Of a DNA stretch of 64,000 nucleotides, positions 570 to 22,347 are shown piece after piece; the stretch's first letter is position 1, and every line of letters begins with the position of its first letter. Under the pieces are notes generated by a model. It was given only the letters and a program-made list of their open reading frames with translations. It was not told where the DNA came from and made no database searches. A program made the position numbers and the translations under genes. Origin of the DNA: Patescibacteria group bacterium (GTDB taxonomy: Bacteria > Patescibacteriota > Patescibacteriia > Patescibacteriales > WJLG01); NCBI GenBank assembly GCA_041652555.1, contig JBAZHE010000001.1, positions 66,847 to 130,846 on the forward strand, read 5' to 3'.

Positions 570-622
570 GACAAAACCCTATATTTTGTTATAGTATTAG
601 CACATAACAATTAATCTATTTT

Positions 623-2449
623 ATGAAAAATTTAATAAAGAATTTAGTGATTTTTTTGGCTATTTTTGTGGTTTTAACAGTAATTTTTGCCGCTTTCCAG
701 TCTTTAGAAGGAAAAAACAAAGATAAGGGTATTGGTTTAGGCGATTTGGCTTGGCAAGTTAATAATAATAATACAGAATTAATTTCCGTTGAAGGTTCAA
801 AAGTTACGGTAAAGTTAAAGGGTGGCGAGGAAAAAACCGTGCTTAAAGAAGACAGTGAATCTTTAACCGAGCTGTTAAAAAATCTCGGCGTGCCAGCGGA
901 GAAAATTTCTGCGGCCAATATAAAAATTAAAGAACGTTCCGGCTCAGATTTTTTCTTAACGATAATTCTTCCAATTTTGTTGCCATTTGCACTAATTGCT
1001 CTTTTTATTTATTTTATGATGCGGTCGGTTTCCGGCGCCAACAACAAGGCGATGATGTTTGGGCAATCCGGCGCTAAGGAATTCCGCAAAGAAGGAAAAG
1101 TGAAAGTGACCTTTAATGATGTGGCCGGTTCAGAAGAGGCGAAAGAAGAATTAAAAGAGGTAGTTGATTTTTTGAAGTCTCCGAAAAAATATAGTGATAT
1201 GGGGGCGCGCATTCCGCGCGGCTTCCTTTTGTTGGGTGCGCCAGGCACGGGTAAAACTTTAATGGCTAAGGCAGTGGCTGGTGAAGCTAATGTGCCGTTT
1301 TTTCATATTTCTGGTTCGGAGTTTGTGGAAATGTTTGTCGGCGTCGGTGCTTCCCGTGTTCGCGATTTATTTGCTCGTGCCAAGAAGAGCGCTCCTTGTA
1401 TAATTTTTGTGGATGAAATTGACGCTGTCGGCCGCCGCCGCGGTGCCGGCTTGGGCGGTTCGCATGATGAGCGCGAACAGACGTTAAACCAAATTCTCGT
1501 AGAGATGGATGGCTTTGAAAGCGGTACGAATATTATTGTTATCGCCGCGACTAATCGTCCCGATGTTCTTGACCCAGCCTTGTTACGCCCTGGGCGTTTT
1601 GACCGTCAGGTGGTTTTGGAAGTGCCGGACTTGAAAGAGCGTGAAGCGATTTTAAAAGTTCATTGCGATAAAAAACCTTTGTCCGCCGAAGTTGATTTAA
1701 AAAGAGTTGCTGGGCGCACTTCCGGATTTTCCGGCGCGGAATTGTCTAATCTTCTGAACGAAGCAGCGATTGCTACAGCTAAGGCCGGTGAGAAGGAAAT
1801 AAAAATACAGACGATTTTTGATTCTATTGAAAAAGTGATGATTGGGCCAGAAAGAAAAAGCCGTGTCGTTTCTGATAAGGAGAAAAAGATTACCGCCTAT
1901 CATGAGGCCGGACATGCTGTGGTTGCGCATAATTTGAAGAATATTGATCCGGTGCAAAAAATTTCTATTATTTCTCGCGGTCGTGCCGCCGGCTATACTT
2001 TGAAAACCCCGCAAGAAGATAAGCGTCTTCATTCTAAATCTGAATTTACAGAAGAATTGGCCGTCTTAGTGGCTGGACGCTTAGCCGAGAAAATATTTTT
2101 TAACGAAATAACCACCGGCGCGTCTTCTGATTTGCGCCACGCCACAGACATTGCTCGCGCTTTAGTGACAGAATATGGAATGAGCGACAAATTACCTTTG
2201 CGTACTTATGGCAATTCTGATGAATTGGTTTTCTTGGGCCGTGAAATGCACGAGGGCCGCGATTATAGCGAACGCACCGCCGAAGCGATCGACGCCGAGG
2301 TCGGCACTTTGGTTAACGAGGCCGTAAAAATTGCCACCGAAATTATTACCACTAAAAAAGCTGACATGGAAAAAATTGTCGCCGCCTTAATGAAAAGAGA
2401 AACCATGGAAAAAGCAGAATTTGAAGAAATCCTTGGAAAGAAAGAATAA
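623..2449 (+). CDS. ftsH: ATP-dependent zinc metalloprotease FtsH
   Basis: N-terminal TM segments, Walker [12 protein letters not shown]+ core, zinc motif HEAGHA. Confidence 0.95.
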
Positions 2450-2450
2450 A

Positions 2451-3110
2451 ATGAAATTTGATGTTATTACAATTTTTCCGGAGATTTTGGACTCTTATTT
2501 TAGTGAGGGGATAGTTGGGCGTGCTTTGAAGAACAAAAAAATTAAGATTAAGGTGCATAATTTGCGAGATTGGACTACTGACAATCACAAGACAGTTGAT
2601 GATTCTCCTTATGGTGGCGGTGCGGGGATGGTTATGAAGGTTGAGCCTATTTATAAAGCTTTGAAACAGGTGGCAAAAAAGAAAAATAAAAAGCAAAAAG
2701 TTGTTTTGCTTTCCGCTAAAGGTAAGACTTGGAATCAGAAAAAGGCTAGAGAATATTCTAAATTAGATAGTATAATTTTTGTTTGCGGACGTTATGAAGG
2801 TGTTGATGAGAGAATTTTGAATTTTATTGACGAAGAGGTTTCCATTGGTGATTATGTTTTAACTGGCGGAGAATTGGGTGTAGCTGTGATGATTGATTCT
2901 ATAACTCGTTTATTACCTGGAGTATTAGGAAACGAAGAAAGCGCTATAGCCGAATCGCATTCCGAAGAAGGAGTCTTGGAATATCCACAATATACGCGAC
3001 CAGAAATTTTAAAAATTGGTGCAAAAAAATATAAAGTACCAGAAGTTCTTTTAAAAGGAAATCATAAAGAAATCAATAAATGGCGAGAAGAAAACAAGAA
3101 GAGTAGATAG
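2451..3110 (+). CDS. trmD: tRNA (guanine37-N1)-methyltransferase TrmD
   Basis: MKFDVITIFPE...DDSPYGGGAGMVM is typical of TrmD. ATG at 2451 directly follows the ftsH stop; the ORF-track start at 2421 overlaps ftsH. Confidence 0.92.
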   Translation: MKFDVITIFPEILDSYFSEGIVGRALKNKKIKIKVHNLRDWTTDNHKTVDDSPYGGGAGMVMKVEPIYKALKQVAKKKNKKQKVVLLSAKGKTWNQKKAREYSKLDSIIFVCGRYEGVDERILNFIDEEVSIGDYVLTGGELGVAVMIDSITRLLPGVLGNEESAIAESHSEEGVLEYPQYTRPEILKIGAKKYKVPEVLLKGNHKEINKWREENKKSR

Positions 3111-3123
3111 AAAGGCGGTTGTA

Positions 3124-3372
3124 ATGGAATTTAGATGTAGTTTAAAGGCTCTATTCAAAATGAGAAAGATTATGTCTCGGTTAACAGGGAAACCAGAAAA
3201 TGAAATCAAATTTCAAGATAGTTTGCCGAGAGGGATGATATTTTTCGAAATAATGGGAGAGCTTGAAGAATGTTTTAGTTGGAGTTTTAAGTACTCAAAA
3301 ATTCTCACAGAAAGGGTTATGACTGTTTCCAGCCTAATCCACTACTTAAATAGTGTCGGTTGCTCTTTTTGA
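3124..3372 (+). CDS. Small hypothetical protein, possibly carrier-protein-like (DSL motif)
   Basis: 82-aa ORF. FQDSLPRGMIFFEIMGELEECF faintly resembles the ACP Ser-attachment helix. Weak hairpin plus T-run downstream. Start uncertain. Confidence 0.3.
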   Translation: MEFRCSLKALFKMRKIMSRLTGKPENEIKFQDSLPRGMIFFEIMGELEECFSWSFKYSKILTERVMTVSSLIHYLNSVGCSF

Positions 3373-3504
3373 GGTTGTTATTCTGGGGCTGTGATTTTAT
3401 CCGGCCCTTTTTTTATTTTGTCAGGAAAAGTATTTTAAGTTAAAATTAAAAATAATGTAATTGCCTGCTGGATTGATGTTGCGAAAATATATTTTAACAG
3501 TAAT

Positions 3505-3534
3505 AGATTCCTTGTTTCGCTGCGGGATGACAAA
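3505..3534. repeat. Degenerate half-copy of the dRS3/NIME-like element
   Basis: agattccttgtttcgctgcgggatgacaaa resembles the right half ctggattcccgccttcgcggggatgacaaa at 57250..57279. Confidence 0.45.
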
Positions 3535-4530
3535 TTAGATTATTTCCCAGCCGGTTTCTGTTTTAATAATACTTCCGTTTAATCGGAAGGCGGCGGCTTT
3601 TTTGTGGCCGCCGCCACCTAGTTTTTCGGCTAAGAGGGCGACGTTGATTTCGGGGAGTTTTGATCTTAAGCTTCCACGAACCACTCCTTTTTCTTCCTCT
3701 CTTAAAAATAAAGAGCCTTTTATTCCGTCTAAGTTGGTTATAATATCAGAGATAGCATCAAAGGCGCTATCTTCACCAAATTCTTTCTTTAGCTCAACAA
3801 CTTCCTCGTAAGTGAAAACTGAGCAAACTAAGTCGTATTTTTCATTGATGTATAGTTTTTCTAAAGCACGACCGATTATTTTCATAGCAGCGACTGATTT
3901 GCCTTCGTTGTTGCGCTTAATAATTTTGGGCATAGCCGCGCCGCGTAATAAAAGAGCTGAGGAAATTTTTACAGTTTCTTCGTTGACTGAACTGAAAAGC
4001 AAATTGCCGGTGTCAGTCATTATTCCGGCCAAAAGGCAATTGGCAGCTTTTTGCCCGATTTGAATATTATTGACAGTGAAAAAAAGATAAATAATTTCTG
4101 CGGCCGAAGAATGTTGGGGCAGGCGGATTTCCAGGTCGGAATAATTATCGGTTGGCGGGTGATGGTCGAATTCTAAAATAGTCTGATTTGATTTTTTTTG
4201 GACGATTTCATCAGCCAAACCGGTGCGCGTCAGAGCGCTACAATCAACTATAATAATTAAGTCAAAAGAAAAAAAATTAAATTTTTTTTTAGAGGTTATT
4301 TTTTTAAAATTCGGCAGAAAAGAAAAATGTTCCGGTGCTTGGTCGGCACAGAAAAGGTGGTAATTTTTACCAAGCTTATCTAGTAAGAGTGACAGAGCGC
4401 ACATTGAAGCTAGCCCGTCGCCGTCCGGCCGGATATGGGTGGCGACTAGGATGTTTTTCGCACTGCGAATTTTTTCTAGCGCTTGTTGAAATTTTTTAGT
4501 TAGGATTTCTTCGTTCATTTTTTGTGTCAT
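3535..4530 (-). CDS. nrnA: DHH/DHHA1 phosphoesterase (NrnA-like oligoribonuclease/pAp phosphatase)
   Basis: DGDGLAS, EFDHHPP and GGGGHKKAAAF motifs. An alternative start (MNEEIL, ATG complement ending at 4518) would sit outside the repeat element. Confidence 0.8.
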   Translation of the reverse strand: MTQKMNEEILTKKFQQALEKIRSAKNILVATHIRPDGDGLASMCALSLLLDKLGKNYHLFCADQAPEHFSFLPNFKKITSKKKFNFFSFDLIIIVDCSALTRTGLADEIVQKKSNQTILEFDHHPPTDNYSDLEIRLPQHSSAAEIIYLFFTVNNIQIGQKAANCLLAGIMTDTGNLLFSSVNEETVKISSALLLRGAAMPKIIKRNNEGKSVAAMKIIGRALEKLYINEKYDLVCSVFTYEEVVELKKEFGEDSAFDAISDIITNLDGIKGSLFLREEEKGVVRGSLRSKLPEINVALLAEKLGGGGHKKAAAFRLNGSIIKTETGWEII

Positions 4531-4596
4531 GCTGGCGAAGGCTGGTATCCAGTTTTACATAAGGACTATGGATCCCGGCCTTCGCCAGGATGACAC
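4524..4596. repeat. dRS3/NIME-like palindromic element, divergent copy (a)
   Basis: gtgtcatGCTGGCgaagGCTGGTatccag - 17 nt - ggatCCCGGCcttcGCCAGGatgacac. The left and right halves are mutually complementary. Confidence 0.7.
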
Positions 4597-4647
4597 CGTA
4601 GTTATATATTAAATGAATTATAAAGCATTTTTGGAAATTTGAAACTA

Positions 4648-4679
4648 TTGACAAAAGATAATTTAATATGTATTATAAT
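4648..4679 (+). promoter_or_regulatory. Sigma70-like promoter
   Basis: TTGACA (4648..4653), 17 nt, TATTAT, with TATAAT overlapping. Lies upstream of the 4740 ORF, which has an AAGGAG SD. Confidence 0.55.
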
Positions 4680-4739
4680 TATGGTTGCCAAATGAGTGTT
4701 TGGTAATTTTTGTTCATTTAATCAACAAGGAGTGAGCAC

Positions 4740-5084
4740 ATGTCTTTTTCTGGAGCAACTATCTTAGAAGGATCAGCCAATCGTACTGTCAATTTTTTTT
4801 ATGGGATTCGCGAAGTAAGCGAGGTTGGTAATGGTTTAACGATTAATCAATTCAAGGTATTAGCAAAAAAGGTATTGCTCAGTAATCATGCGGAAATCAA
4901 CGTGTTGATTGCAAAAGCTGAAAGAATATTTCCCAAAGAAATGGCTGGTTTCGATAATCTTTTATATATTCTTCATTCAGTGAAACGCAATTCGGTTGGT
5001 CTGTCCGGTAGCGATTATGAAAGACTTTTAAATAGGTCTTTCCGAAGGGCTGGTGCCAAACCGCACTTACCATTTTACAATTAA
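4740..5084 (+). CDS. Hypothetical protein
   Basis: 114-aa ORF with AAGGAG SD, own promoter and terminator. No motif recognised. Confidence 0.6.
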   Translation: MSFSGATILEGSANRTVNFFYGIREVSEVGNGLTINQFKVLAKKVLLSNHAEINVLIAKAERIFPKEMAGFDNLLYILHSVKRNSVGLSGSDYERLLNRSFRRAGAKPHLPFYN

Positions 5085-5097
5085 TTCTGTCTTATAG

Positions 5098-5127
5098 AGG
5101 TCGTCTCTCGTGCGGCGACCTTTTTTC
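5098..5127 (+). terminator. Rho-independent terminator
   Basis: aggtcgtc ... ggcgacct followed by tttttt. Confidence 0.7.
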
Positions 5128-5134
5128 ATGTCAA

Positions 5135-5163
5135 AAAATCACCTTTTTAAAAAAGGTGATTTT
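5135..5163 (-). terminator. Hairpin terminator at the end of rbfA
   Basis: aaaatcaccttttt / aaaaaggtgatttt palindrome, with A/T runs on both sides. Confidence 0.6.
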
Positions 5164-5545
5164 ATTTGTATTCTACTTCTTCCAGTTTGTCTATTTCTTC
5201 ATCTAGCATGGTTTCTATTTTTTTCATTTCTTCAAAGGCCTTATTCATAACGTTCACCTTTTTTTCTGTAGAGTCAAAATTCCATAGGAGCTTTGGTACT
5301 TTGCGAAAACGCATACGGTTTTTTAGTAACTTGGCGATATCAATAGAAGAAGTGCGCAGTTTTTCTAAAGCCGAACCAACGATATTGTCTGGTAAAACAG
5401 AGATATAAATTTTGGCTGTGGAAAAATTTGGATCACAGTTTACACTGGAAACAGTAATTAAACCGTCATAAAAATCAACCACTTCTTCTATGGCCAGGGC
5501 GATTTCTTTTCGTAGAGTTTCATTTAGGCGATCGATGTTCGGCAT
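5162..5545 (-). CDS. rbfA: Ribosome-binding factor A
   Basis: RbfA-like sequence (LRKEIALAIEE...AKIYISV...RFRKVPKL) immediately downstream of infB. Confidence 0.9.
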   Translation of the reverse strand: MPNIDRLNETLRKEIALAIEEVVDFYDGLITVSSVNCDPNFSTAKIYISVLPDNIVGSALEKLRTSSIDIAKLLKNRMRFRKVPKLLWNFDSTEKKVNVMNKAFEEMKKIETMLDEEIDKLEEVEYK

Positions 5546-7533
5546 TATAGTTTTGTAGTAATTTCTTTTTCTTCGTAAAACTGAACGATATCACCGACTT
5601 CAATTATCGGCTTGCCTTCGTATTGAATACCACACTCCTGGTCTTGTTCAACTGTCGGCACATCCATTTTTCCGGCTTGCACTTTAGTGACACGGCCGAT
5701 AGCGACAAGATCTTTGTTGCGTAAAACTTCTACTGGACAGTCATTTTTTATTTGTCCGTCCAGAACTTTGCCACCGACCACTTGGCTTTTATTCTCCGTG
5801 CGAAAAATCGCCAAAACTTTCAAGCGTCCGAGGTTGATACGCTCCTTGTTTTGGGGCATTATTTTTTGCATTTCGTCCTTGACGTATTTGATGAGATCGT
5901 AAATAATGGTAAAAGTTTTTGCTTCAACTTTTCTTTCGCGTAACAATGTTTCTATTTGCGGTGAAAGCCTGATATTGAAGCCAATTAGTTTAGCATCCGA
6001 CCCTTCGGCGCGAGTAATGTCGCCCTCGGTGATATTTCCTAAGCCCTTGCTAACAATTTTAACCATCACTTCCTCGGTATTTAGTTTCATCAGCGATTCT
6101 TCAATGGCTTCAGCCGAACCTAAAACATCACTTTTGATTATCAAATTTAATTTTTTGGCATTGTCGTTTTCAGCCTCTTCGCGGGCGGCCGAAGCAAGGA
6201 TTGGGCGGGCGGCTAATTTTTCTAAACCGCCTTTTACTCTTTCGCCTTCGCCGACTTCCACGACATCGCCAACGGCTGGTGCTATTTTGATGCCTAAAAT
6301 TCTCACCGGAGTAGAGGGAGTAGCTTCTTTTATTTCTTCACCTTTATAATTTTTTAGCGAACGGGCTTTGCCGATTATTTTTCCTTGCAAAATTATTTGG
6401 TCGCCGACACGTAAGGTGCCGTTTTGTACTAAGAGAGTAGAAATCGGTCCGGAATTTTTATCAACGCGTGACTCAATGATTGTGCCGATGGCATCAGAGT
6501 TGGGGTTGGCTTTCATGTTTTTTGCTTCAGCATCAGCGGTTAAGAGGATTAAATCTAAAAGTTCGTCAATACCAGTTCCGTTTAAGGCGGAGATTGGTGC
6601 ACAAACAGCTTTTCCGCCCCAGTCTTCGGGGAGGATATTTAATTTGTTTACCAAATCTTGTTTGGCTTTATTTAAGTCGGCAGTGGGGCGGTCAACTTTA
6701 TTGATGGCGACGATAAATGGTAGTCCGGCGGCTTGGATTATTTTGTAGGCCTCAATTGTTTGTGGTTGGACGCCGTCATCGGCGGCTACAACCAAAATTG
6801 CCACATCGGCGATTTTGGCGCCGCGTGAGCGCATAGCAGTAAAGGCTTCGTGTCCGGGGGTGTCAACAAAAGTTATCGGGCGGTTTTTGCGTACGACCTG
6901 ATAGGCGCCGATATGTTGGGTGATGCCACCGGCTTCTCCAGCCACAACATCGGTTTTGCGGATAGCATCCAAGAGTTTGGTTTTGCCATGATCTACGTGG
7001 CCCATAACGACAATTACCGGAGGACGGATGGATAAATTGCCTTCATTCTCTTGGTTTAAATTTTCTTCAACCTTTTTGTCATTATGAGTTTCTTTTTCTT
7101 CGTCAAGATTTTGTTTTTCGTCTAGTTGGATGTCAAAATTTAAGCTGTCGCCGATAATGGCGGCGGTATCAAAATCAATCCTTTCATTGATAGAGGCAAA
7201 AACGCCATTTTTCATTAATTCGGCCAAAACTTTATTAATCGGCAAGTTGGCTAAAGTGGCAAAGTCGCGCACGGCTAAAAGAGAGGGGATTTTTATGATT
7301 TTTTTCTCTGGGACCGCATCTTCAATTGCAATAACTTTTTCTTTGTCTATATTTTGAAAATCAGCTTGTTGAAGTTTGCGCACCAAAAAAGGCCATTCGC
7401 GTAAAATTCTCTGTGCCATCACCAAATCAATTTTAATGGCTTTTTGCCCAATATCAAACCCCAGCTTCGGGAGTTTTTCCCGCAGGTCGTTTGGGGTGAT
7501 TTTTAGAATTCTAGCGAGTTCAGTTACATTCAT
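5545..7533 (-). CDS. infB: Translation initiation factor IF-2
   Basis: GTPase motifs [13 protein letters not shown] and NKVD, plus the conserved IF-2 C-terminal domains. Confidence 0.95.
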
Positions 7534-7785
7534 AGTTTTTGTATAAAATAAAAATCCCTTTTAAGAATTGTTTTAATCTTACCGCTTTTTTTTTATTAAG
7601 TCAAATAATGCTAAGGATTTCGTACACTTCTTTTTTATCCACAGTTGCGGGGAGCTTGAAAATTTATTATAATATAATTTTGAAAGTAATTTACTAATTT
7701 ATAAGTTTGGAGGTAATTATAAATTTTTATTTTTTATTTTGCGGAAATAGTAAATCGTTATTTATTTTCAAACAGTAAACAATTT

Positions 7786-9123
7786 ATGCATCAAAGGGGG
7801 AGAAAGTTAGTGCCTGGATTTTTATTTTTAGGCATTTTTTTGTTGACAAATTTATTTTACGGCGGTTTTGAAGTCAATGAGGCCAAGGCTGGTTTAGCTA
7901 ATCATGTGGTTATAAACGAGGTTAGTATTGACGGCGTGATCGGAACGGGTGGATCAGAAGACGATTGGGTGGAGTTGTATAATCCGACCGACGAGTCGGT
8001 TGATCTTAGTGGTTGGTCAATACAAAAAACCGCCGGCAGTGGTTCCTCGGCTTCTAAAGTGGCTTTAAGCGGAGTTATTCCGGCCAATAATTATTTTTTG
8101 ATTGTCCGTAATGGTGCCTCTACGGTAGCGTCTTTGCGTTCTATTGCCAATATTTTAGTAAGTAGCTCATTTTCTTTGTCAGCTGGAAATATTATTTATT
8201 TAGTGAATGATAATGAAAAAATTTCTAGCACCACCAATCCCTATCTTGATGAAAATATAGTGGATTTTGTCGGTTTCGGCGTAGCTTCTTTTTTTGAAGG
8301 AAATTTAGCCGCTCCGGCCATTCCTGAAGCTCAAAGTATAGCGAGAATTCCGGCCGGCGAGGATACGGATGAAAATTCCGTTGATTTTCAAATACAGAAC
8401 ATTCCTACGCCGACTAACTCTTCTTTAAGTAATGACAATAGTGATATCGGCGGCACAGTGCTTTTAACTGTTGCCTTAGAGTCTGACCCTGTGCGAAACA
8501 TTAGTACTGCCGGTGCGGAAATATTTTTTCAAGTAAACTCTATTGGTAATGCTTTGGTTTATTATGGGCTGGATGAATCCTATGGGAATTCTACTGGCTT
8601 GGAATTGGTTTCTGCTAATACTGTTGAAACCATTGCTATAGATGGCTTGACTTGCGACACAAGCTATTTTTATGCGGTTCGCGCAGAAAATTTAGACAGC
8701 ACTGAAAATGATCAAACTGAAAATTCTACTTTTACTACTTTGCCTTGCGGTATTGTTATTGATTCTTTAGTTATGACTAAAACTTCAGCCAAAGCAGATG
8801 ACCAGTACGGTGACGGTTGGCAATGGGAATTTAATATAACTATTTGGGATATGCTAGAAACTTCTTTGAAGATGAAATTTGATCAATGGACCGGCGCTGG
8901 GAGTTTAGCCGCTGGAAATAATATGCAATATTCGGTTGATGAAGGGGAGAACTGGGTGAGTATAGAAGATGATGGAGTTTATCCGGAGGTCGGCGCTGAT
9001 ATAGAAAATATTGATATGAGCACTACTGACGGTCGGCAAGTGAAAATTTTGGTTAGAATGAAAGTTCCCTTTGGCACTTCAGCCGGATATTATGACTCTA
9101 GTTATGGGATATTAACAGAATAG
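7786..9123 (+). CDS. Secreted lamin-tail-domain (LTD) protein
   Basis: Signal/TM segment, then VVINEVSIDG...DDWVELYNPTDESVDLSGWSI, typical of LTD. An alternative GTG start at 7810 follows a GGGGGAG SD. Confidence 0.8.
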   Translation: MHQRGRKLVPGFLFLGIFLLTNLFYGGFEVNEAKAGLANHVVINEVSIDGVIGTGGSEDDWVELYNPTDESVDLSGWSIQKTAGSGSSASKVALSGVIPANNYFLIVRNGASTVASLRSIANILVSSSFSLSAGNIIYLVNDNEKISSTTNPYLDENIVDFVGFGVASFFEGNLAAPAIPEAQSIARIPAGEDTDENSVDFQIQNIPTPTNSSLSNDNSDIGGTVLLTVALESDPVRNISTAGAEIFFQVNSIGNALVYYGLDESYGNSTGLELVSANTVETIAIDGLTCDTSYFYAVRAENLDSTENDQTENSTFTTLPCGIVIDSLVMTKTSAKADDQYGDGWQWEFNITIWDMLETSLKMKFDQWTGAGSLAAGNNMQYSVDEGENWVSIEDDGVYPEVGADIENIDMSTTDGRQVKILVRMKVPFGTSAGYYDSSYGILTE

Positions 9124-9124
9124 T

Positions 9125-9400
9125 ATGGCCAGATTTTTAATTATTTTATTTATAATATTTCTTTTTCCTGTGCAGATTCGGGCGTCAGAGATTACCGGAA
9201 GAATAAGCACAAATCCGAAAAAAAGTGATTTTGTCAGTTCCAATTTTAATAATGCTGGGAATGAGAGTGGTACAAAAGAAGTTAAGGGAATAAAAATAAC
9301 AAACGAAGCAAAAAGGAATATTTGGCAAAATATTTATTCTCTCCTTGTAAGGTTTGTGAAGTTTATTATAGGTATTGTTGCTTTGCCTTGGCGGATTTGA
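9125..9400 (+). CDS. Small secreted/membrane hypothetical protein
   Basis: 91-aa ORF with a signal-like N-terminus (LIILFIIFLFPVQIRA), tightly following the LTD gene. Confidence 0.45.
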   Translation: MARFLIILFIIFLFPVQIRASEITGRISTNPKKSDFVSSNFNNAGNESGTKEVKGIKITNEAKRNIWQNIYSLLVRFVKFIIGIVALPWRI

Positions 9401-9455
9401 TAGAAAAGAGTTTAATAAAAAAAGAGAATGGTTTAATCCGTTCTCTTTTTGTAAT

Positions 9456-10094
9456 TTAAAAATATTTTAGTAATATTGTTACTGGTTTAAAAGTCTTTCG
9501 GTGAATTTCGCAGGGGCCGAATTGTTTTAAGGCTTCCATGTGAAATTTTGTTCCATAGCCGGCGTGTTTAGCGAAACCGTATTGCGGATATTTTTTGTCG
9601 TATTCATCCATAAGGCGGTCGCGCGTTACCTTGGCAACAATAGAAGCGGCGGCAATAGAAAAAATCAGCGCGTCGCCATTAATGATCGCTTCTTGGCGTA
9701 AGCTTAAATTTGGTATAGGGAATTTTCCATCCACCAAAAGAATATCCGGTTTGGATTTTAAATTTCCCAAAGCCATTTTCATCGCCAAAAATGTCGCTTG
9801 TAAAATATTTATCCGATCAATGGTTTGATGATTAACAACGCCAACACCAATTTCAAAAAAATTTTCTTTAATAATATCAAAAAGTTCTTCGCGTTTTTTG
9901 GCGGATATTTTCTTGGAATCGTTAATACCTTTTAATTTTTCTAATTTGACAGAATCAAGAAGTATTTCCGGATTCAAAACTGCCACTGCCGCCACAACCG
10001 GCCCAGCCAAAGGTCCACGCCCAGCCTCATCTAGTCCAGCTACTAATTTAAAACCCTGCATAAAAAGTGAATTTTCTTTATTGATTTCTAGCAT
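9456..10094 (-). CDS. rnhB: Ribonuclease HII
   Basis: GLDEAGRGPLAGPVVAAA and DSKK motifs. Confidence 0.92.
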   Translation of the reverse strand: MLEINKENSLFMQGFKLVAGLDEAGRGPLAGPVVAAVAVLNPEILLDSVKLEKLKGINDSKKISAKKREELFDIIKENFFEIGVGVVNHQTIDRINILQATFLAMKMALGNLKSKPDILLVDGKFPIPNLSLRQEAIINGDALIFSIAAASIVAKVTRDRLMDEYDKKYPQYGFAKHAGYGTKFHMEALKQFGPCEIHRKTFKPVTILLKYF

Positions 10095-10103
10095 AAGCGA
10101 ATT

Positions 10104-10955
10104 TTACAATAAGTCTTTAATTTTATCAAATTGCGTGACAGCGACTTTAGTATAAATTTGGGTTGTTTCCAGGCGTTCGTGTCCGAGTAAGGATTGGATA
10201 TAGCGAATATCTAGACCACTTTCCAAGAGGTGAGTGGCGAAGCTATGTCGGAAAGAATGAGGGGAGACCGGTTTATTTAAGCCGGCTTTTTTTGTATTTT
10301 GACTGACAATCGCTTGGATTGTTCGTGTTGTTAGACTGCCTCCGCGCATTGATTCAAAAACATATTCCAGCGGTTTGAATTCAGCTAAATATTTTTCAAT
10401 ATTTCTTAAAACAACCTTAGAAATAATTGTAACTCTATCCTTGGCACCTTTTGCGCCCTTGAGGTGAATAATCTTGCGATTAAAATTGATGTCATTAATT
10501 TTCAAGGAAACAACTTCACTGACGCGCAGGCCAGAACAGTAGAGTATTTGAATGATTAGTTTGTGCTTAATATTGTTGCAGGCATTAATAATATATAAAA
10601 TTTCTTTTTTAGAAAGCACGACTGGTAGTTTTTTGTCTTTTTTGGCACGTGGGAGGTTGAAGAAAAATTTACGATAAAGGATTTTTTCAAAATAAAATTT
10701 CAAAGCACTATAAGCGGTGTTTAAGGTGGAAGAAGAAAGTCCTTTGTCGCATAAAGATTCCAAATAATTTCGAATATGCCCATTTGTGATTTCTTTGGGG
10801 TTTTTACTTGCAAAATTCAATATTTCAGTGATATAATGCAGATAGGATTTGATAGTTTTTTGGCTAAATTTACGCAACTTCATTTCTTGTTTTAGCCCAA
10901 AAATCGGATCTTTGCTTAAATATTGATAGTTTTCTTGTAAAAAGTTTCCATTCAT
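10104..10955 (-). CDS. Tyrosine site-specific recombinase (Xer-like, SAM-like N-terminal domain); candidate cassette recombinase
   Basis: Catalytic set: R in SGLRVSE, K in KGAKDR, HSFRH, LGH, Y in QIYTKV. 283 aa. About 58 residues lie between the KDR and HSFRH boxes, so there is no IntI-type insertion. Confidence 0.9.
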   Translation of the reverse strand: MNGNFLQENYQYLSKDPIFGLKQEMKLRKFSQKTIKSYLHYITEILNFASKNPKEITNGHIRNYLESLCDKGLSSSTLNTAYSALKFYFEKILYRKFFFNLPRAKKDKKLPVVLSKKEILYIINACNNIKHKLIIQILYCSGLRVSEVVSLKINDINFNRKIIHLKGAKGAKDRVTIISKVVLRNIEKYLAEFKPLEYVFESMRGGSLTTRTIQAIVSQNTKKAGLNKPVSPHSFRHSFATHLLESGLDIRYIQSLLGHERLETTQIYTKVAVTQFDKIKDLL

Positions 10956-11008
10956 ATCTTTATTATGATTAGAAAATTATATTAATATTTTAACTAATTT
11001 AAAATAAA
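10921..11008. repeat. Direct repeat copy 1 (recombinase 5' codons plus upstream region)
   Basis: tattgatagttttcttgtaaaaagtttccattcat...ttttaactaatttaaaataaa recurs at 11694..11781, roughly 80 percent identical by eye. Confidence 0.8.
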
Positions 11009-11054: not shown

Positions 11055-11086
11055 TTGACAGTAGTATCGTGATACGATATTATAAT
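11055..11086 (+). promoter_or_regulatory. Putative higBA promoter with palindromic operator
   Basis: TTGACA (11055..11060) and TATAAT (11081..11086). The spacer is long (20 nt) and contains the inverted repeat GTATC-GT-GATAC. Confidence 0.45.
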
Positions 11087-11094
11087 TGTAGGTT

Positions 11095-11376
11095 ATGATA
11101 AAAAGTTTTAAATCCAAAGAGGCGGAGAAGATTTTTAACCGAGGATATTCTTTAAAACTTCCGTCCGATATTCAAAGAACGGCCCTACGCAAATTATCAA
11201 TGATTCAAGCGGCTATCGCTATTAATGATTTACGGATACCGCCAGCTAACCATTTAGAGCTATTAAAAGGCGATAAGTGTGGTCGGTACAGCATTAGAAT
11301 TAATGATCAATGGAGAATTTGCTTTGTTTGGCAATCGGGGGATGCCTATGAAGTTGAAATAGAAGATTATCATTAA
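11095..11376 (+). CDS. higB: HigB toxin (RelE/ParE superfamily, plasmid maintenance system killer)
   Basis: 93 aa with the typical HigB pattern (FKSKEAEKIF...HLELLKGDKCGRYSIRINDQWRICF). Toxin-first order, with HigA downstream. Confidence 0.88.
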   Translation: MIKSFKSKEAEKIFNRGYSLKLPSDIQRTALRKLSMIQAAIAINDLRIPPANHLELLKGDKCGRYSIRINDQWRICFVWQSGDAYEVEIEDYH

Positions 11377-11390: not shown

Positions 11391-11693
11391 ATGATAAAGA
11401 AAATACAGCCAATTCATCCAGGTGAAATTTTGCAAGAGGAGTTTTTACTACCTTTTAAGCTTAGCCAGTATCGCCTGGCTAAGGATATTGCCGTGGCTCC
11501 AATCAGAATTAGTGAAATAATCCGCGGTTCGCGTGCCATCAGTGCTGATACTGCGTTGCGTTTGGGAAAATACTTTAATGTTTCGCCGGAATTTTGGCTA
11601 AATTTGCAGTCGCACTATGAGCTAGCTGTGGAAAGTGAGGAGTTAAGTGGAGTTCTAAAAAATAAAGTTAAGGTTTTTGAATTCGCTGTTTAG
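11391..11693 (+). CDS. higA: HigA antitoxin (XRE-type HTH)
   Basis: HPGEILQEEFL...LAKDIAVAPIRISEIIRG...TALRLGKYF, a HigA-family HTH. Confidence 0.88.
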   Translation: MIKKIQPIHPGEILQEEFLLPFKLSQYRLAKDIAVAPIRISEIIRGSRAISADTALRLGKYFNVSPEFWLNLQSHYELAVESEELSGVLKNKVKVFEFAV

Positions 11694-11781
11694 TATTGAT
11701 GGTTTATTGTAAAAAAATTTCCATTCATACTCCAGTATGATTAGAAGTTTGTATAATAATTTTAACTAATTTTAAAATAAA
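11694..11781. repeat. Direct repeat copy 2, including a 12-codon remnant of the recombinase 5' end
   Basis: The minus strand reads ATGAATGGAAATTTTTTT... (MNGNFF..., stop after 12 codons). Starts right at the higA stop codon. Confidence 0.8.
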
Positions 11782-11790
11782 TAACAACAA

Positions 11791-11829
11791 CTTCGCATAT
11801 ACCTTGTTCTACGAAATAAATTTTTTATC
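11791..11829 (+). other. Array-proximal junction: solo right arm (L'-like plus GTT box plus extended arm) of an attC-like site
   Basis: cttcgcatatacctt-GTTCTACG-aaataaattttttatc. The outer 24 nt match the reverse complement of 12587..12610 at 22/24 positions. Confidence 0.65.
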
Positions 11830-11962
11830 TAGTCGGTAATTTTAAGCTTAGTGATTTGAATGGTGACAGAAATTTTAATTTTTTTTATTAATTCAATAGG
11901 GGAAATAAGGAGTTTTTTCTGCTCTCGGAAGTCGCAGAAAAAATAAGTTATCAAAATTATTT

Positions 11963-12100
11963 ATGAATAAAACGTGGCATTTAAAAAATAAAATTCCAGC
12001 CAAAGCAACATTGGAGCAACGAATAGATTGGCACAAAAATCATCAAAAGTATTGTGCGTGCCGAGAGGTGCCGAAAAGTTTATTAAAATATTTTAAATAA
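11963..12100 (+). CDS. Small Cys-containing protein (45 aa), below the ORF-track cutoff
   Basis: MNKTWHLKNKIPAKATLEQRIDWHKNHQKYCACREVPKSLLKYFK, preceded by AAGGAG plus a hairpin leader. Lies 16 nt upstream of the VOC gene. Confidence 0.5.
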   Translation: MNKTWHLKNKIPAKATLEQRIDWHKNHQKYCACREVPKSLLKYFK

Positions 12101-12116
12101 ATTAAACAACAATTTT

Positions 12117-12476
12117 ATGATTAAAGATTATGACAATTTTTTCTTGCCCGTGAATAGTCTGGATGAGGCTAAACTGTTTTACGGCCAGACACTTGGTCTT
12201 TCTGTGAAATTTGATTTTTCTGATGCGGGGATGACTGCTTTTAAAGTCGGTGACCAAGAGCCGGCAATCATCGTAAAAGATATTAAAAAATTTCCCGACG
12301 CAAAAGTAACTACATGGTTTGTGGTGGATGATGTTCTGATTGAGTACAAAAATCTTAAAGAGAAAGGAGTTTCTTTTTTATCAGAACCATTTGAAATTTA
12401 TACTGGTTTGGCTGCGGAATTTGAAGATCCATTTGGCAATAGATTGGGAATTACCGACTATTCAAAGAAAAAATAA
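12117..12476 (+). CDS. VOC/glyoxalase-bleomycin-resistance family protein
   Basis: 119 aa with the single beta-alpha-beta-beta-beta module pattern (FYGQTLGL...FEDPFGNRLGI). Confidence 0.8.
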   Translation: MIKDYDNFFLPVNSLDEAKLFYGQTLGLSVKFDFSDAGMTAFKVGDQEPAIIVKDIKKFPDAKVTTWFVVDDVLIEYKNLKEKGVSFLSEPFEIYTGLAAEFEDPFGNRLGITDYSKKK

Positions 12477-12482
12477 TAAGGA

Positions 12483-12533
12483 GTTTTGAAAAAATGGAAT
12501 TCACCCCTAACCCCTCTTCCATTTTTTTAAAAC
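12483..12533. repeat. Cassette 3' hairpin (GTTTTGA...TCAAAAC stem, conserved 17-nt loop)
   Basis: gttttgaaaaaatggaa / ttccatttttttaaaac around the loop ttcacccctaacccctc. Confidence 0.75.
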
Positions 12534-12586
12534 AAAAAATTAAATTTTCTTAGATGCAGTCTCAAATTTAGTTTAACAAAAATCGA

Positions 12587-12748
12587 GATAAAAAATTTAC
12601 ATCGTAGAACAAGGAATATCTGGTTCAATAATTTTTCAATATAGATTACAATAAGGAATAAAAAATTATTTCACCCATATTTTTGCTCCGCTAACGCTGC
12701 GCAAAAACATCAGATATTCCTAATAGTTGTCTGAAATATTTTTTTGTC
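12587..12748 (+). repeat. attC-like site J2 (162 bp)
   Basis: R''-like cgtagAAC (AAC 12608..12610), inner arm aaggaatatctg, loop of about 88 nt, cagatattcct, then GTTgtctg (GTT 12726..12728). Confidence 0.7.
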
Positions 12749-12832
12749 TTTAGCGGTAATTTAAAATTTTGGTGCATTGAACAAAGACGAAAATTTGATT
12801 TTTAATTTATTTAAAGAGGGGTAAAAAGGAAT

Positions 12833-13417
12833 ATGTTTCAATATATAGTTTTAATCGGAGCGGTCGTGCAGTTGGTTGGTGTATTTGTTTATATTCGAGC
12901 AACTGTTCGTGGCGAAACAAAACCGAATAGAGTCACTTGGTTAATGTGGTCTGTGGCGCCATTGATTGGATCTGTTGCAGCTTTTTCTGACGGCGTTCGT
13001 TGGGCGGTGCTTCCAGTTTTTATGTCTGGTTTTGCGCCACTGCTTGTTTTTATTGCTTCTTTTGTAAATCCCAAATCATATTGGAAGCTTGAAAAATTTG
13101 ATTATGTTTGTGGAGCTTTTTCAATTTTGGCATTAGTACTTTGGGGGATTACAAAAGAACCATTGATTGCGATTATTTTTTCAATCGCCAGTGATGGATT
13201 TGCGGCAGTGCCAACTATTATTAAATCTTGGAAACATCCAGATTCTGAATCCGTCGAAGCTTACACTACTGGGTTGTTCAACTCATTAACAAGCTTTTTT
13301 GCACTGAGAACATTTGGTATTTCAGAATTGGCCTTTCCAATATATTTAGTTTTGGTAAATTCGTCATTGATTGCCGCTGTTTATAAAGGGCGATTGAAAA
13401 AAATAATCGCAAAATAA
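12833..13417 (+). CDS. Multi-pass membrane protein, unknown function (cassette ORF)
   Basis: 194 aa with about 6 hydrophobic helices and an AAAGGA SD. Confidence 0.7.
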   Translation: MFQYIVLIGAVVQLVGVFVYIRATVRGETKPNRVTWLMWSVAPLIGSVAAFSDGVRWAVLPVFMSGFAPLLVFIASFVNPKSYWKLEKFDYVCGAFSILALVLWGITKEPLIAIIFSIASDGFAAVPTIIKSWKHPDSESVEAYTTGLFNSLTSFFALRTFGISELAFPIYLVLVNSSLIAAVYKGRLKKIIAK

Positions 13418-13420
13418 GGA

Positions 13421-13471
13421 GTTTTGAATTTTTGGCATTCACCCCTGACCCCTCTGCCAAAAATCCAAAAC
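13421..13471. repeat. Cassette 3' hairpin, second copy
   Basis: gttttgaatttttggca / tgccaaaaatccaaaac around the loop ttcacccctgacccctc. The stem sequence covaries relative to the other copies. Confidence 0.75.
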
Positions 13472-13523
13472 AAAAATCAAATTTTCTTTTAGAATAACCA
13501 AAGTTTGTGCCAATAAAATAGAA

Positions 13524-13743
13524 GACAAAAAAATACATCAGACAACACGGCACATGCGGTTCAGAAATTTTGCGCAATTATAATTCAAGGTATGCAAAAT
13601 TTCTTCTCCCAAATTGCGCTGACGATATGGCAAATTTGGTGATATAATCAAGTAAAGCGATAATTAACAAGTTCAATCAATAATCCACGGCGCAACTTCG
13701 CATGTGCCGAAACGTTATACGCAATTCAAAAAATATTTTTCTG
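13524..13743 (+). repeat. attC-like site J3 (220 bp)
   Basis: cagacAAC (13544..13546), inner arm cggcacatgcgg, loop of about 130 nt containing TGaTATAAT, then cgcatgtgccg and GTTatacg (13714..13716). Confidence 0.7.
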
Positions 13744-13865
13744 ATAATAAGGAGTTTTGATAGGCAAAAAATAAGAATAAATTTGTTTTTTATTTAATTT
13801 AACAGGGGAACAAGGTGTTTTCTCCGCTCCGCCACAAAAACGATTTATTAATTTACATTTGAAAT

Positions 13866-14507
13866 ATGGCGTCAGAAAATTTTGAATTGAACCAAAAACC
13901 GGAAGTAAGCATTAATTTAATAGAGAGAATCGAAAAATTAGAAAAGATTAAAACTCCAGAAGAATTATTGTCGTTCATGAAAAAGAATATAAATTATGGT
14001 TTTATTGGTAAAGACGACGATAAAGTATATTCTCCTCGGCAAGAAGGCTGGGGTGTAGGAAAACAACCGGAAGCAAGATTACAAAGTCCTGAAGAACTTC
14101 TGAAAAGTGGTTATGGGGCTTGTTGGGAACAGACGGATTTTGAAAAACAATGGTTTGCGAAAAATAATTTTGAGTTTAAAACCCTCCTTTTGATGTTTGG
14201 AAAAGATATCAGTCAAAAAAATCCAGCCCATACGTTGTTAGCATATAAAAAAGACGATAAATGGCACTGGTTTGAAAACACACTCGATAAATATAGCGGA
14301 ATTTATGAATTTGATGATTTAGAGGATTTAATTGAGTATGCCAAAACAGTACTTATAAATAATGCTTTTAATAATGGGGCTACAGAAAACGATATTAAAG
14401 AATATAAATTGTACGACTATGATATGCCAGCATATGGCTGTAGCACTGATGAATTCATTGGGAAAATAAAATTAAATTCTAGAAATCAGGAAAGAAAAGG
14501 AAAATAA
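13866..14507 (+). CDS. Hypothetical protein with a possible transglutaminase/papain-like Cys-His core
   Basis: GYGACWEQTDF ... HTLLAYKKDDKWHWFENT. The C/H/polar spacing resembles a transglutaminase-like fold, but the assignment is weak. Confidence 0.6.
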   Translation: MASENFELNQKPEVSINLIERIEKLEKIKTPEELLSFMKKNINYGFIGKDDDKVYSPRQEGWGVGKQPEARLQSPEELLKSGYGACWEQTDFEKQWFAKNNFEFKTLLLMFGKDISQKNPAHTLLAYKKDDKWHWFENTLDKYSGIYEFDDLEDLIEYAKTVLINNAFNNGATENDIKEYKLYDYDMPAYGCSTDEFIGKIKLNSRNQERKGK

Positions 14508-14600
14508 AGGAGTTTTGGAAAAAAGGAATCCGTTATTGTATTTTTCGAAAGATCGAAATCATGATAAAATATAGATAAAGTCGAACTAATCTCAATATTC

Positions 14601-15434
14601 ATGACAAAGAAACAAAAAATAAAAGTTGAAGGTATTGAAATAGTCACTTTTACCAAAGATAATAGCGATTATATTTCTTTAACCGATATTGCAAAACATA
14701 AAAATTCAGAGGCCGGCTTGGTTATTTCCCATTGGCTAAGCACTCGTTTTGCCATTGAATTCATGGGGATATGGGAAAAAATGAATAATCCCAATTTTAA
14801 AGTTACTGAATTCAGTAACTTTAAAAATCAAAGCGGCGCCAATGGTTTTGTATTGTCTGTCCAGCAATGGGTCAATAAAACTAGCGCTATTGGAATTTTT
14901 GCCACAAGAGGGCGCTATAATAGCGGTACTTTCGCTCACAAGGACATTGCCTTTGAATTTGCTTCTTGGATTTCAGCGGAATTTAAGTTTTATCTCATCA
15001 AAGAATTTCAGCGATTAAAGGAAGATGAAAATAACAGGCAAAAGTTAGAATGGAATCTCCAGCGAACACTGGCAAAAATCAACTACAAAATTCATACCGA
15101 TGCCATAAAGGAGAAATTAATCCCCCTTGAATTAACCAAGGAACAGATTAATATGGAATATGCCAGTGAAGCGGATTTGCTCAATGTTGCATTATTCGGA
15201 ATAACCGCAAAAACGTGGCGAGATCAAAATAAAGAATTAGATGGAAACATTCGAGATTATGCCTCAATTGAACAGTTAGTGGTTCTGTCTAATCTTGAAA
15301 GTATAAACGCATTGTTAATTCGCGAAGGATTTTCCACTGAAGATCGGATTCAAAAATTAAATAGCACCGCGATAATTCAGATGAAATCGCTTTTAATAAA
15401 CACTGAAATAAAAAAATTGGAATCGCCAAAATAA
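14601..15434 (+). CDS. KilA-N domain-containing protein
   Basis: The N-terminal 130 aa match the KilA-N pattern (YISLTDIAK...W...FAHKDIAFEFASWIS), followed by a coiled C-terminal half. Confidence 0.8.
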   Translation: MTKKQKIKVEGIEIVTFTKDNSDYISLTDIAKHKNSEAGLVISHWLSTRFAIEFMGIWEKMNNPNFKVTEFSNFKNQSGANGFVLSVQQWVNKTSAIGIFATRGRYNSGTFAHKDIAFEFASWISAEFKFYLIKEFQRLKEDENNRQKLEWNLQRTLAKINYKIHTDAIKEKLIPLELTKEQINMEYASEADLLNVALFGITAKTWRDQNKELDGNIRDYASIEQLVVLSNLESINALLIREGFSTEDRIQKLNSTAIIQMKSLLINTEIKKLESPK

Positions 15435-15446
15435 AAACAATAAGGA

Positions 15447-15497
15447 GTTTTGAAAAAACGTAATTCACCCCTAACCCCTCTTCCGTTTTTTCAAAAC
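15447..15497. repeat. Cassette 3' hairpin, third copy
   Basis: gttttgaaaaaacgtaa / ttccgttttttcaaaac around the loop ttcacccctaacccctc. Confidence 0.75.
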
Positions 15498-15550
15498 AAA
15501 AAAATCAAATTTTCTTATACGTAAAGCAACGCCAGCTCAATAAAAACCAA

Positions 15551-15711
15551 GATAAAAAATTTACATCGTACAACAAGGAATATCTGGTTCAATAATTTTT
15601 CAATATTATTTATAATAAGGAACAAAAAATTATTTCACCCATATTTTTGCTCCGCTATCGCTGCGCAAAAACATCAGATATTCCTGACTGTTAGGCGTAA
15701 TTTTCACTTTT
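15551..15711 (+). repeat. attC-like site J5 (161 bp) ending in the canonical core GTTAGGC
   Basis: 15551..15685 differs from 12587..12721 at about 7 of 135 positions. Identity stops just before GTTAGGC (15690..15696). Confidence 0.75.
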
Positions 15712-15736
15712 AAGAAGTCGCCTTTAATAAATACAT

Positions 15737-16405
15737 ATGATTTACTTAAAACAATTAATCATCATTATTCCCGCCTTTGCTGTTCTATTGTATCTAACAA
15801 CTGGATACAAGATACTTAGGCCATTTCGTAAAAACCAAATGAAAGAATTGGCGGAAAAGCTAAATCTTGAATTTGTTGGAAATGAAAAACGCAGTTGGAA
15901 AGAACGATTTTTTAGCTATTCTGTTAAAAAAAATATTATTCGTGGAGAATACAACAATAAAAAAATTGAAATTTTTGACTTTGATTCAATATTGAAAAAT
16001 GCTGTAAATCCGATTACCAACGCTGTAATGACCTATTATTATGGGAAAAATCCAGTCCATATCACCTATATAAATGGGAAAATATATAAAGATAAATATT
16101 TACCATACCTTAACATTAATAAAATTGAAAAATTGATAAAAGATGAAATTTCGTTAACCGAATATGATAAAATATTTTTTAACAAAGGTGTATTTCTGCT
16201 GACTTTATTAACATCACTTTGTATAACTTCAGTAATTGGATATTATTTTTATGCGTTTTATTCGGTTAGTCTAACAAAAATTTTAATTTTTTTAGTGCCA
16301 ATTAGCTTAATAGTTGCATATTTCTGCTACAGAATAGCTAAAAAATCTGGATACAAGGTTTTAATAAAAAATGATCCAAGAGAAGTGGCGACTTCTAAAA
16401 AGTGA
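15737..16405 (+). CDS. Membrane hypothetical protein (cassette ORF)
   Basis: 222 aa with an N-terminal TM and two C-terminal TM helices. No motif recognised. Confidence 0.6.
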   Translation: MIYLKQLIIIIPAFAVLLYLTTGYKILRPFRKNQMKELAEKLNLEFVGNEKRSWKERFFSYSVKKNIIRGEYNNKKIEIFDFDSILKNAVNPITNAVMTYYYGKNPVHITYINGKIYKDKYLPYLNINKIEKLIKDEISLTEYDKIFFNKGVFLLTLLTSLCITSVIGYYFYAFYSVSLTKILIFLVPISLIVAYFCYRIAKKSGYKVLIKNDPREVATSKK

Positions 16406-16492
16406 AAACTTGCTCCGCTATCGCTCCGCACCCCGCCGCGCTCTCGTTCCGCTACGCTCCACTCGGGACGCCTAACACCGAATATGAGGTTC
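16397..16492 (+). repeat. Left arm of the last attC-like site (J6), with canonical GCCTAAC and a 58-nt GC-rich insert
   Basis: aaaagtgaaaac + insert + acGCCTAAC (16470..16476) + accgaatatgaggttc. Complementary to 15690..15711. No matching right arm found downstream. Confidence 0.6.
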
Positions 16493-22095: not shown

Positions 22096-22169
22096 GCGCC
22101 CGTAGCTCAACTGGATAGAGCGTCTGGCTTCGGACCAGAAGGTTGCGGGTTCAAGTCCTGCCGAGCGCA
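22096..22169 (+). tRNA. tRNA-Arg (anticodon TCG)
   Basis: Manual cloverleaf: acceptor gcgcccg/cgagcgc, anticodon loop cttcgga, T-loop ttcaagt. Confidence 0.85.
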
Positions 22170-22179
22170 CAGTTCAGAG

Positions 22180-22255: not shown

Positions 22256-22264
22256 GTTGAAAGG

Positions 22265-22338: not shown

Positions 22339-22347
22339 CAATGAAAA

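Follow-up and report, generated by a model that had tools for sequence, protein, structure and literature searches.

What is a plain Xer-type recombinase gene doing at the head of an array of small gene cassettes that end in long hairpins? This question is raised by a 64-kb stretch of the genome of a Patescibacteria group bacterium (contig JBAZHE010000001.1, positions 66,847 to 130,846; the whole stretch of 64,000 nt is hereafter the window, and positions are counted within it), where the tyrosine recombinase gene xer lies near a dif-like site and a run of cassettes on the opposite strand. The hallmark of the integron integrase, IntI, is an extra domain, regarded as the innovation behind its recombination of folded single-stranded sites. 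We propose, at a probability of roughly 0.7, that the locus is a Xer/dif-based analogue of the integron that would work much as the integration of CTX phage does; the xer product would then be the conserved single Xer-type recombinase of this Patescibacteria lineage, which we consider probable. The gene and the site in question are:

10104-10955, minus strand: xer, a XerA-type tyrosine recombinase of 283 aa with an ATG start, without the IntI additional domain
11790-11817, plus strand: dif-like candidate insertion site (attI analogue), ACTTCGCATAT / ACCTTG / TTCTACGAAAT, with the cassette junction G|TT between 11806 and 11807

An earlier note on this DNA had described an array-associated recombinase with a complete set of catalytic residues, a SAM-like N-terminus, a length of 283 aa, about 58 residues between KDR and HSFRH, and no IntI additional domain, and all of this held. 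The motifs lie where they had been placed (FSQKTIKSYLHYI at residues 30-42, GLRVSE at 142-147, KGAKDR at 169-174, HSFRH at 233-237, LGH at 257-259 and IYTKV at 267-271), the KDR-to-HSFRH distance is exactly 58 residues, and R144, K169, H233, R236, H259 and Y268 are invariant across 37 homologues. Pfam gave Phage_integrase (1e-42) and an N-terminal SAM_4 domain. The class was assigned by the cut-offs of curated hidden Markov models (HMMs): NF040815, the XerA equivalog, was the sole NCBI curated model that the protein passed (249 bits, cut-off 220), and it stayed below both integron integrase models, TIGR02249 (205.5 bits, cut-off 265, the match being split into two stretches) and NF011946 (132.9 bits, cut-off 435). 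Among solved structures, the top sequence matches were archaeal XerA (4a8e, 1e-46, and 5hxy). The alignment with the Vibrio integron integrase VchIntIA (2a3v) fell into two blocks, query 19-192 with chain 7-183 and query 202-271 with chain 236-305, leaving about 43 IntI residues of 2a3v without a counterpart. Consistently with this, an AlphaFold model (37 homologues, pLDDT (predicted local distance difference test) 85) has helices at 180-193 and 210-223 joined by a short strand/coil at 194-209, with no extra helix, and its closest folds are XerA 5hxy and 4a8e, IntI 2a3v coming close behind. Given the split alignment, the failed integron models, the helix-free segment 194-209 and the XerA best folds, the 283-aa Xer lacks the IntI-specific additional domain (I2 helix, patch III).

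The earlier note had also considered a dif-like site beside a single Xer, and such a site was found: a 28-mer just upstream of xer, which is the junction where the array starts. The regions upstream of xer were aligned from 19 Patescibacteria loci and then from four more (xer identity 45-89%), and the dif-like 28-mer was present about 65-95 nt upstream of the xer start in 21 of the 23 related loci with a readable region. Its consensus (AgTTCGcATAT / AACTtG / TTATnCGAAAT) has the 11-6-11 layout of dif; compared with the literature-checked string of E. coli dif (GGTGCGCATAA TGTATA TTATGTTAAAT), the two arms match at 7-8/11 and 7-9/11 positions in most loci, and the dyad symmetry between the arms is 6-8/11 in most loci. 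The copy at 11790-11817 is the sole one in the 64-kb window. Conservation between genomes stops right after G|TT, at the border of the dif-like centre and the right arm. Moreover, some 12 contigs from different assemblies break off upstream of xer, at a distance of about 70-470 nt, and in at least three of these the end lies a few to about 50 nt from this G|TT; assemblers behave in this way where strains differ.

Beyond the junction, all open reading frames (ORFs) from 11807 to about 16490 point away from xer and are grouped in hairpin-bounded cassettes on the strand opposite to it, which bears out the description of the recombinase as array-associated. The cassettes measure 0.9-2 kb and carry co-oriented genes, without replication or recombinase genes; their products are a 45-aa protein, a glyoxalase-family protein, two membrane proteins, one with a weak transglutaminase-like match and a KilA-N protein. 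In the list below, R'' denotes the 5' outer arm of a hairpin, and L'' and L' the two boxes of its inner stem.

11807-12726, plus strand: cassette 1, with a 45-aa ORF (11963-12100), a glyoxalase-family ORF (12117-12476), an 86-nt element (12463-12548) and hairpin site a
12608-12728: hairpin site a, with R'' flank 12586-12610, L'' 12612-12622, L' 12711-12721 and GTT 12726-12728
12727-13714, plus strand: cassette 2, with a membrane-protein ORF (12833-13417), an 86-nt element (13401-13486) and hairpin site b
13544-13716: hairpin site b, with R'' flank 13522-13546, L'' 13548-13558, L' 13699-13709 and GTT 13714-13716
13715-15690, plus strand: cassette 3, probably composite, with an ORF (13866-14507), a KilA-N ORF (14601-15434), an 86-nt element (15427-15512) and hairpin site c
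15572-15692: hairpin site c, with AAC 15572-15574, L'' 15576-15586, L' 15675-15685 and GTT 15690-15692
15691-16488, plus strand: cassette 4, with a membrane-protein ORF (15737-16405), then truncated site d
16469-16488: truncated site d, 5' half only, with R'' CGCCTAAC 16469-16476 and L'' 16478-16488

The R'' of site d (CGCCTAAC) is complementary to the start of cassette 4 (GTTAGGCG, 15690-15697), and a pattern search for its L' partner gave nothing above chance; site d thus marks where the array ends distally. Between sites c and a, the identity is 91% (15550-15692 against 12586-12728), the copy including the 86-nt element. The start of this element (TAAGGAGTTTTGAAAAAATGGAATTCACCCCTAACCCCTCTTCC...) coincides with the ORF stop or follows it closely, and the hairpin site comes about 37 nt after the element, which occurs in three unrelated cassettes and in a related genome (L001, 307-382); it might act as a terminator or belong to a shared 3' module.

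Sites a-c share one layout: ..aCATCGyyyAAC, one A, an 11-nt box, a branched loop of 60-170 nt, the reverse complement of the box, four unpaired bases and GTTrrrCGAAAT. Across loci the sites are 64-190 nt long. The hairpins of the window fold better than shuffled sequence (z about -3), and the 1-nt/4-nt bubble, a 2-nt bulge beyond the inner stem and a 2-nt mismatch in the outer arm are conserved. The parts of the dif-like site recur in them: its right arm is the outer arm GTTrrrCGAAAT of the hairpin, and its left arm is the 3' strand of the inner stem, aaCTTCGCATA. On the 5' strand, AAC and TATGCG stand six nt apart, just as they do in the dif-like duplex; the 3' strand has three extra unpaired bases. 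In the predicted fold, the hairpin is a dif mimic, with two 11-bp arms and a small asymmetric central bubble. The earlier note had argued that the enzyme, if it moves the cassettes, must recognise its long hairpin sites differently. This is plausible and gains a concrete form in the hairpins, which are predicted to fold as dif mimics; a recognition of the IntI style is not obviously needed, though some sites carry one extrahelical base.

A strict structural scan returned three perfect sites in the window and 16 more in nine Patescibacteria loci. Profile HMMs of the half-sites, which use sequence only and demand no complementarity, gave 41 matches to the 5' half and 45 to the 3' half at E<0.01, all of them upstream of xer and on the strand opposite to it, and none in 13 Bacteroidota/Firmicutes loci or elsewhere in the window; the 3'-half HMM also matched the dif-like site itself. 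Half-sites found in this way outside the training set pair with each other, though in several the 3' box contains a single extrahelical base, as in CAGAT[G]ATGCGT. In an ungapped alignment of 17 distinct sites, 94.5% of the cells paired, against 24-44% in slid-partner controls, a figure that is partly circular as most of the sites had initially been selected for complementarity. The variety of compensatory pairs is not circular: nine of the 11 inner-box (L) pairs had changes on both sides, and the observed covariation was reached by 0 of 500 shuffles. Mismatches on the ORF strand numbered no G-T and four C-A, plus the conserved outer-arm C-A; these numbers are small and point only weakly to folding of the complement of the ORF strand.

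The order of the cassettes carries a further signature. We compared the 22 nt ending in the AAC of a site with the 22 nt starting at the GTT of the preceding site, in the window and in four related loci (L007, L009, L012 and L023). In most consecutive pairs, the start of a cassette pairs at 19-20/22 positions with the R'' flank of its own distal hairpin, but with the flank that starts at the GTT of the same site, this R'' flank pairs at only 7-15/22 positions. The pair of mismatches recurs unchanged, CA opposite AA at positions 10-11. When the ends of cassettes 1 and 2 were rejoined in silico, the hairpin gained a 24-bp arm and the folding energy went from -20 to -34 and from -30 to -45 kcal/mol. 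Read from the sequences, this footprint is the signature expected of circles inserted by crossover at G|TT, exactly as in integrons.

Four further loci, picked only for their long contigs, served as a blind test. In all four the dif-like site was present, the expected strand bore 2-5 hairpin sites, and there were 3-7 co-oriented small accessory genes, among them genes for NUDIX, methyltransferase, cupin, deaminase and GIY-YIG proteins. The cassette content is fully turned over between close relatives: blastn between arrays whose xer genes are 82-89% identical found no common ORF cassette, only hairpin sites and an ORF-less element in common, so that the movement of cassettes is not demonstrable by such comparison.

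The ORF-less element, about 215 nt long and structured, recurs as a separate 'cassette' in L001 (about 9920-9700, 8380-8160 and about 100), L006 (4-5 copies), L007 (three) and L016 (two), and is absent from the window. After G|TT it starts with TTACGCAAAATGTTGCTCGCTTCGCTA, and it ends in a hairpin with 1/1 spacers, whose loop holds an inner hairpin pairing right-arm-like with left-arm-like sequence. A scan of viral contigs with a 3'-half-site pattern also brought up a tight cluster of three or four hairpin sites at 9638-10504 of L038 (IMGVR_UViG_3300031565_000157, a 37-kb contig labelled viral), with very short units (150-260 nt), one overlapping a 90-aa ORF, and no xer in the 12.9 kb examined; as evidence on carriage by phages, this cluster was uninformative.

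How might such an array be built? In the mechanism that we propose, the dif-like site upstream of xer, with its 11-bp left arm, 6-bp centre and 11-bp right arm, would be the insertion point of the platform, and a cassette would consist of one or two promoter-distal co-oriented ORFs and an imperfect palindrome of 64-190 nt. A single-stranded circular cassette would fold so that the palindrome rebuilds a dif mimic: ..CATCGyyyAAC would pair with GTTrrrCGAAAT.. in an outer arm of at least 22 bp with its conserved 2-nt mismatch, followed inwards by the 1-nt/4-nt bubble as the centre, the 11-bp inner stem with the left-arm sequence CTTCGCATA, the 2-nt bulge and a branched loop of variable sequence. 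With both the dif-like duplex and the folded hairpin bound, Xer would swap a single strand at G|TT (AA|C in the complement), and replication would resolve the odd junction, as in attI x attC recombination in integrons and in attP(+) x dif1 recombination of CTX phage. The array would grow by repeated insertion, and cassettes would leave by recombination between sites. We infer Xer as the catalyst, folded single-stranded DNA as the substrate, the choice of strand and the replicative resolution.

The alternative that survives best, unlikely though we judge it, keeps the same Xer and has it act on double-stranded DNA. Each hairpin would then be two inverted dif-like half-sites (R''-L'' and L'-R'), and modules resembling the pdif modules of plasmids would move between direct L'-R' sites. 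Each cassette is indeed flanked by L'-R' on its left and R''-L'' on its right, in inverted orientation, and terminal inverted repeats of 22-34 bp are also expected of duplex modules; in the 5' half the spacing is the canonical 6 nt, and the best arm sequences are those of the 3' half. However, the 3' half has 9 nt between its arms, not 6, and the centres of the sites differ (CTCGGATAC, TTCCTAATA, GTGCCGAAAC), so that a full two-strand exchange between sites would leave mismatches. Moreover, L'' and L' of one site covary at their central positions, which is not required of a duplex, and the bubble, the bulge and the 2-nt mismatch are fixed in the folded form.

As for the kind of gene that xer is, thousands of proteins of the same length, 55-60% identical to this Xer, occur in Patescibacteria, Parcubacteria and Moranbacteria assemblies, and relatives with a 75-89% identical Xer keep the neighbours rnhB, LTD protein, infB, rbfA, DHH protein, trmD and ftsH. 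The window is collinear with these relatives from 615 to 11008, and the similarity ends just upstream of xer. With rnhB as its conserved neighbour, xer belongs to the collinear core genome; it is a Xer of the housekeeping type, passed on by vertical descent, rather than a mobile-element integrase. Among Xer-related recombinases, a 'Cand' subgroup found in candidate phyla has already been described (PMC8138268). The earlier note had taken a place inside chromosomal XerC/D, with a canonical dif elsewhere, as speaking against its view of the recombinase; the protein does group with chromosomal Xer, by its NF040815 score and its core synteny, but the link to the array is not undone by it. The flanking core features are:

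9456-10094, minus strand: rnhB (RNase HII), conserved downstream neighbour of xer
10956-11008: upstream region of xer, presumed promoter, conserved in relatives; the similarity of this copy stops short of the dif-like site

In the next alternative, a housekeeping Xer would merely adjoin, as a dimer resolvase, an ordinary integron array with its IntI elsewhere in the genome (clusters of attC sites lacking integron-integrases, CALIN), and the view of the genome is 64 kb. Many R boxes fit the integron consensus (GCCTAAC / GTTAGGC), and most archaeal attC arrays are without a nearby IntI (PMC9668308). We nevertheless hold this to be very improbable. Even in lineages with an xer identity as low as 45%, the array begins at the dif-like site, whose distance from xer is fixed, and the arrays are always on the same side and strand relative to xer; the hairpin arms resemble the dif-like site; the 64-kb window contains one tyrosine-recombinase gene, as does each related locus, and no IntI-type gene was found in the window or in any related 20-kb locus. 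The geometry also argues against it, as the 1/4 bubble, the 11-bp L stem and the long R arm seen here appear to differ from classical attC sites.

Least of all do we credit the view that the palindromes are terminators or repetitive extragenic palindromic (REP)-like intergenic elements in a variable island beside xer: they are AT-rich hairpins located after ORFs, and the separate 86-nt hairpin element also follows three ORFs, but neither the 20/22 pairing of a cassette start with its own distal hairpin arm nor the invariant AAC/GTT, the likeness to the xer-proximal site and the synteny break at G|TT is predicted by it, and a simple terminator scan does not select the palindromes.

Several points weigh against the Xer/dif-based analogue that we prefer. 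The support for excision and integration consists of sequence comparison and in silico folding only, and complementarity was what initially singled out most of the sites in the covariation alignment. The counts of recombinase genes and dif sites cover the 64-kb window and the related loci, leaving room for an IntI, a second Xer or a terminus dif elsewhere in the genome. The outer arm of site c matches the attI-side flank at 11806 (19/22) and its own cassette start at only 11/22; with two ORFs and a hairpin arm unmatched to its own start, cassette 3 looks composite or rearranged. Two loci, L020 and L021, have the dif-like site and no detectable hairpins. On the two sides of xer the GC skew has one and the same sign, both in the window and in 10 of 14 related loci that were tested, so the dif-like site is probably not at the replication terminus, and a placement of the array there was rejected. 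Finally, higBA, which is not a hairpin cassette, separates xer from the dif-like site of the window.

The one related locus among those tested with a clear flip of the GC skew is L020 (Magasanikbacteria, xer at 5485-6261), where it goes from -0.22 to +0.25 either side of the gene; in this lineage an origin or terminus may coincide with the xer/dif-like locus, where no hairpin sites were detected.

The region between xer and the site in the window is arranged as follows:

11055-11083: strong promoter-like site of higBA
11095-11376, plus strand: higB, toxin-antitoxin pair with higA
11391-11693, plus strand: higA, toxin-antitoxin pair with higB
11689-11789: imperfect duplicate (about 78%) of the 5' end of xer with its upstream region

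The pair thus lies between two copies of this sequence (10916-11008 and 11689-11789). In L043, a separate contig of 4 kb with 99.8% identity to the window, there is the same order of xer, higBA and site, so the arrangement is not an assembly artefact. At 3754-4043 of that contig, its match to the window ends inside rnhB (window below 9565), by strain variation or possibly a chimeric contig end. A scan of the array for promoter and terminator consensus sequences did not exceed the expectation from shuffles, and only the higB promoter-like site stood out.

Other repeats were noted in the window. An Rfam search of the window and three arrays returned three tRNAs only, with no family over the hairpins or the ORF-less element; three tRNA genes lie at 22096-22519, separated by near-palindromic repeats (TTCGAATTTCGAAGTGCGAG...), one arm of which is 70% complementary to 11752-11798, just before the dif-like site, probably by chance. 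Outside the array, 33498-33528 and 39565-39595 form a 31-nt inverted pair with 94% complementarity (TTGTGTCATTCCTGCGGAGGCGGGAATCCAG), and 36369-36423, 36635-36662 and 38802-38856 belong to a repeat family of two or three copies containing CCCTCTAGAAAGAGGGGTG.

Set beside known systems, the locus shares most with the integron. In both, the recombinase gene is divergent from an adjacent array of co-oriented, mostly single-gene cassettes, the insertion site adjoins that gene, and toxin-antitoxin genes occur in the array region. Cassettes end in an imperfect palindrome with an outer AAC/GTT and inner paired boxes, conserved in structure over sequence, and the bases that follow the G|TT junction complement the distal site of the same cassette. 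The differences are that the enzyme here is of the XerA type, in core synteny and without the IntI-specific domain, that the insertion site is a recognisable dif-like 11-6-11, and that the hairpins combine outer arms of at least 22 bp with an inner stem of 11 bp and a 1-nt/4-nt bubble, only some sites having extrahelical bases. For archaeal integrons, an IntI that bears the additional domain is reported (PMC9668308).

The second relative is CTX phage, one of the integrative mobile elements exploiting Xer (IMEX). Its integration is, to our knowledge, the sole case of Xer acting on a folded site. The folded single-stranded site of this phage mimics dif and is recombined by XerCD, an enzyme devoid of any I2-like domain (PMC4792948), and here too an I2-less Xer would act on a folded single strand mimicking dif, with an unpaired centre. 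As with the phage, insertion would take place at a dif-type target and serially, giving arrays, and the elements carry no recombinase of their own. In contrast, the units here are gene cassettes of 0.9-2 kb without replication or virion genes, the target lies beside xer and apparently off the GC-skew switch, and there is one recombinase in the place of XerC plus XerD. The suggestion in the earlier note of an IMEX-like serial integration therefore stands for the serial array at a single-Xer dif-like site, but not for its units, which are integron-like gene cassettes rather than phages or islands.

With XerS/difSL, XerH/difH and archaeal XerA/dif, the locus has in common a single Xer gene, and its best sequence and fold matches are archaeal XerA; in xerS/difSL the site also lies immediately beside the gene. 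What sets it apart is that its site heads a hairpin-bounded cassette array, and we know of no report linking single-recombinase Xer systems to such arrays. The pdif modules of Acinetobacter are modules of accessory genes bounded by inverted Xer-type sites (PMC7399989), and the duplex reading of the present array likewise shows inverted Xer-type half-sites bounding accessory genes. These modules, however, are plasmid-borne, served by the two recombinases XerC and XerD and bounded by duplex sites common to modules, with no long covarying hairpin and no array anchored at a recombinase gene, whereas here there is one xer in the chromosomal core. Xer-linked hairpin cassette arrays in Patescibacteria had no description in the searchable full-text literature, which omits most subscription journals.

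Escudero et al. speculated that a Xer-like enzyme and IMEX-like elements were the ancestor of the integron (PMC4792948). On balance, and by a smaller measure than for the analogue as such, we lean towards a wider claim: Patescibacteria would carry a widespread integron analogue made wholly of Xer/dif parts, in which an I2-less XerA-type enzyme captures and stockpiles cassettes by recombining a gene-proximal dif-like site with dif-mimicking hairpins, as a living counterpart or a convergent twin of that proposed ancestor. If true, a phylum-wide set of plain Xer, dif-like site and hairpin-ended cassettes would make the hypothesis of Xer/IMEX ancestry directly testable, and the I2 domain would not be required for hairpin-based cassette arrays, which searches based on IntI miss by design. 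A compact tool for structure-specific recombination may be possible. The frequent breaks of Patescibacteria assemblies just upstream of xer would be explained, and cassette-based gene capture would reach even the reduced genomes of Patescibacteria.

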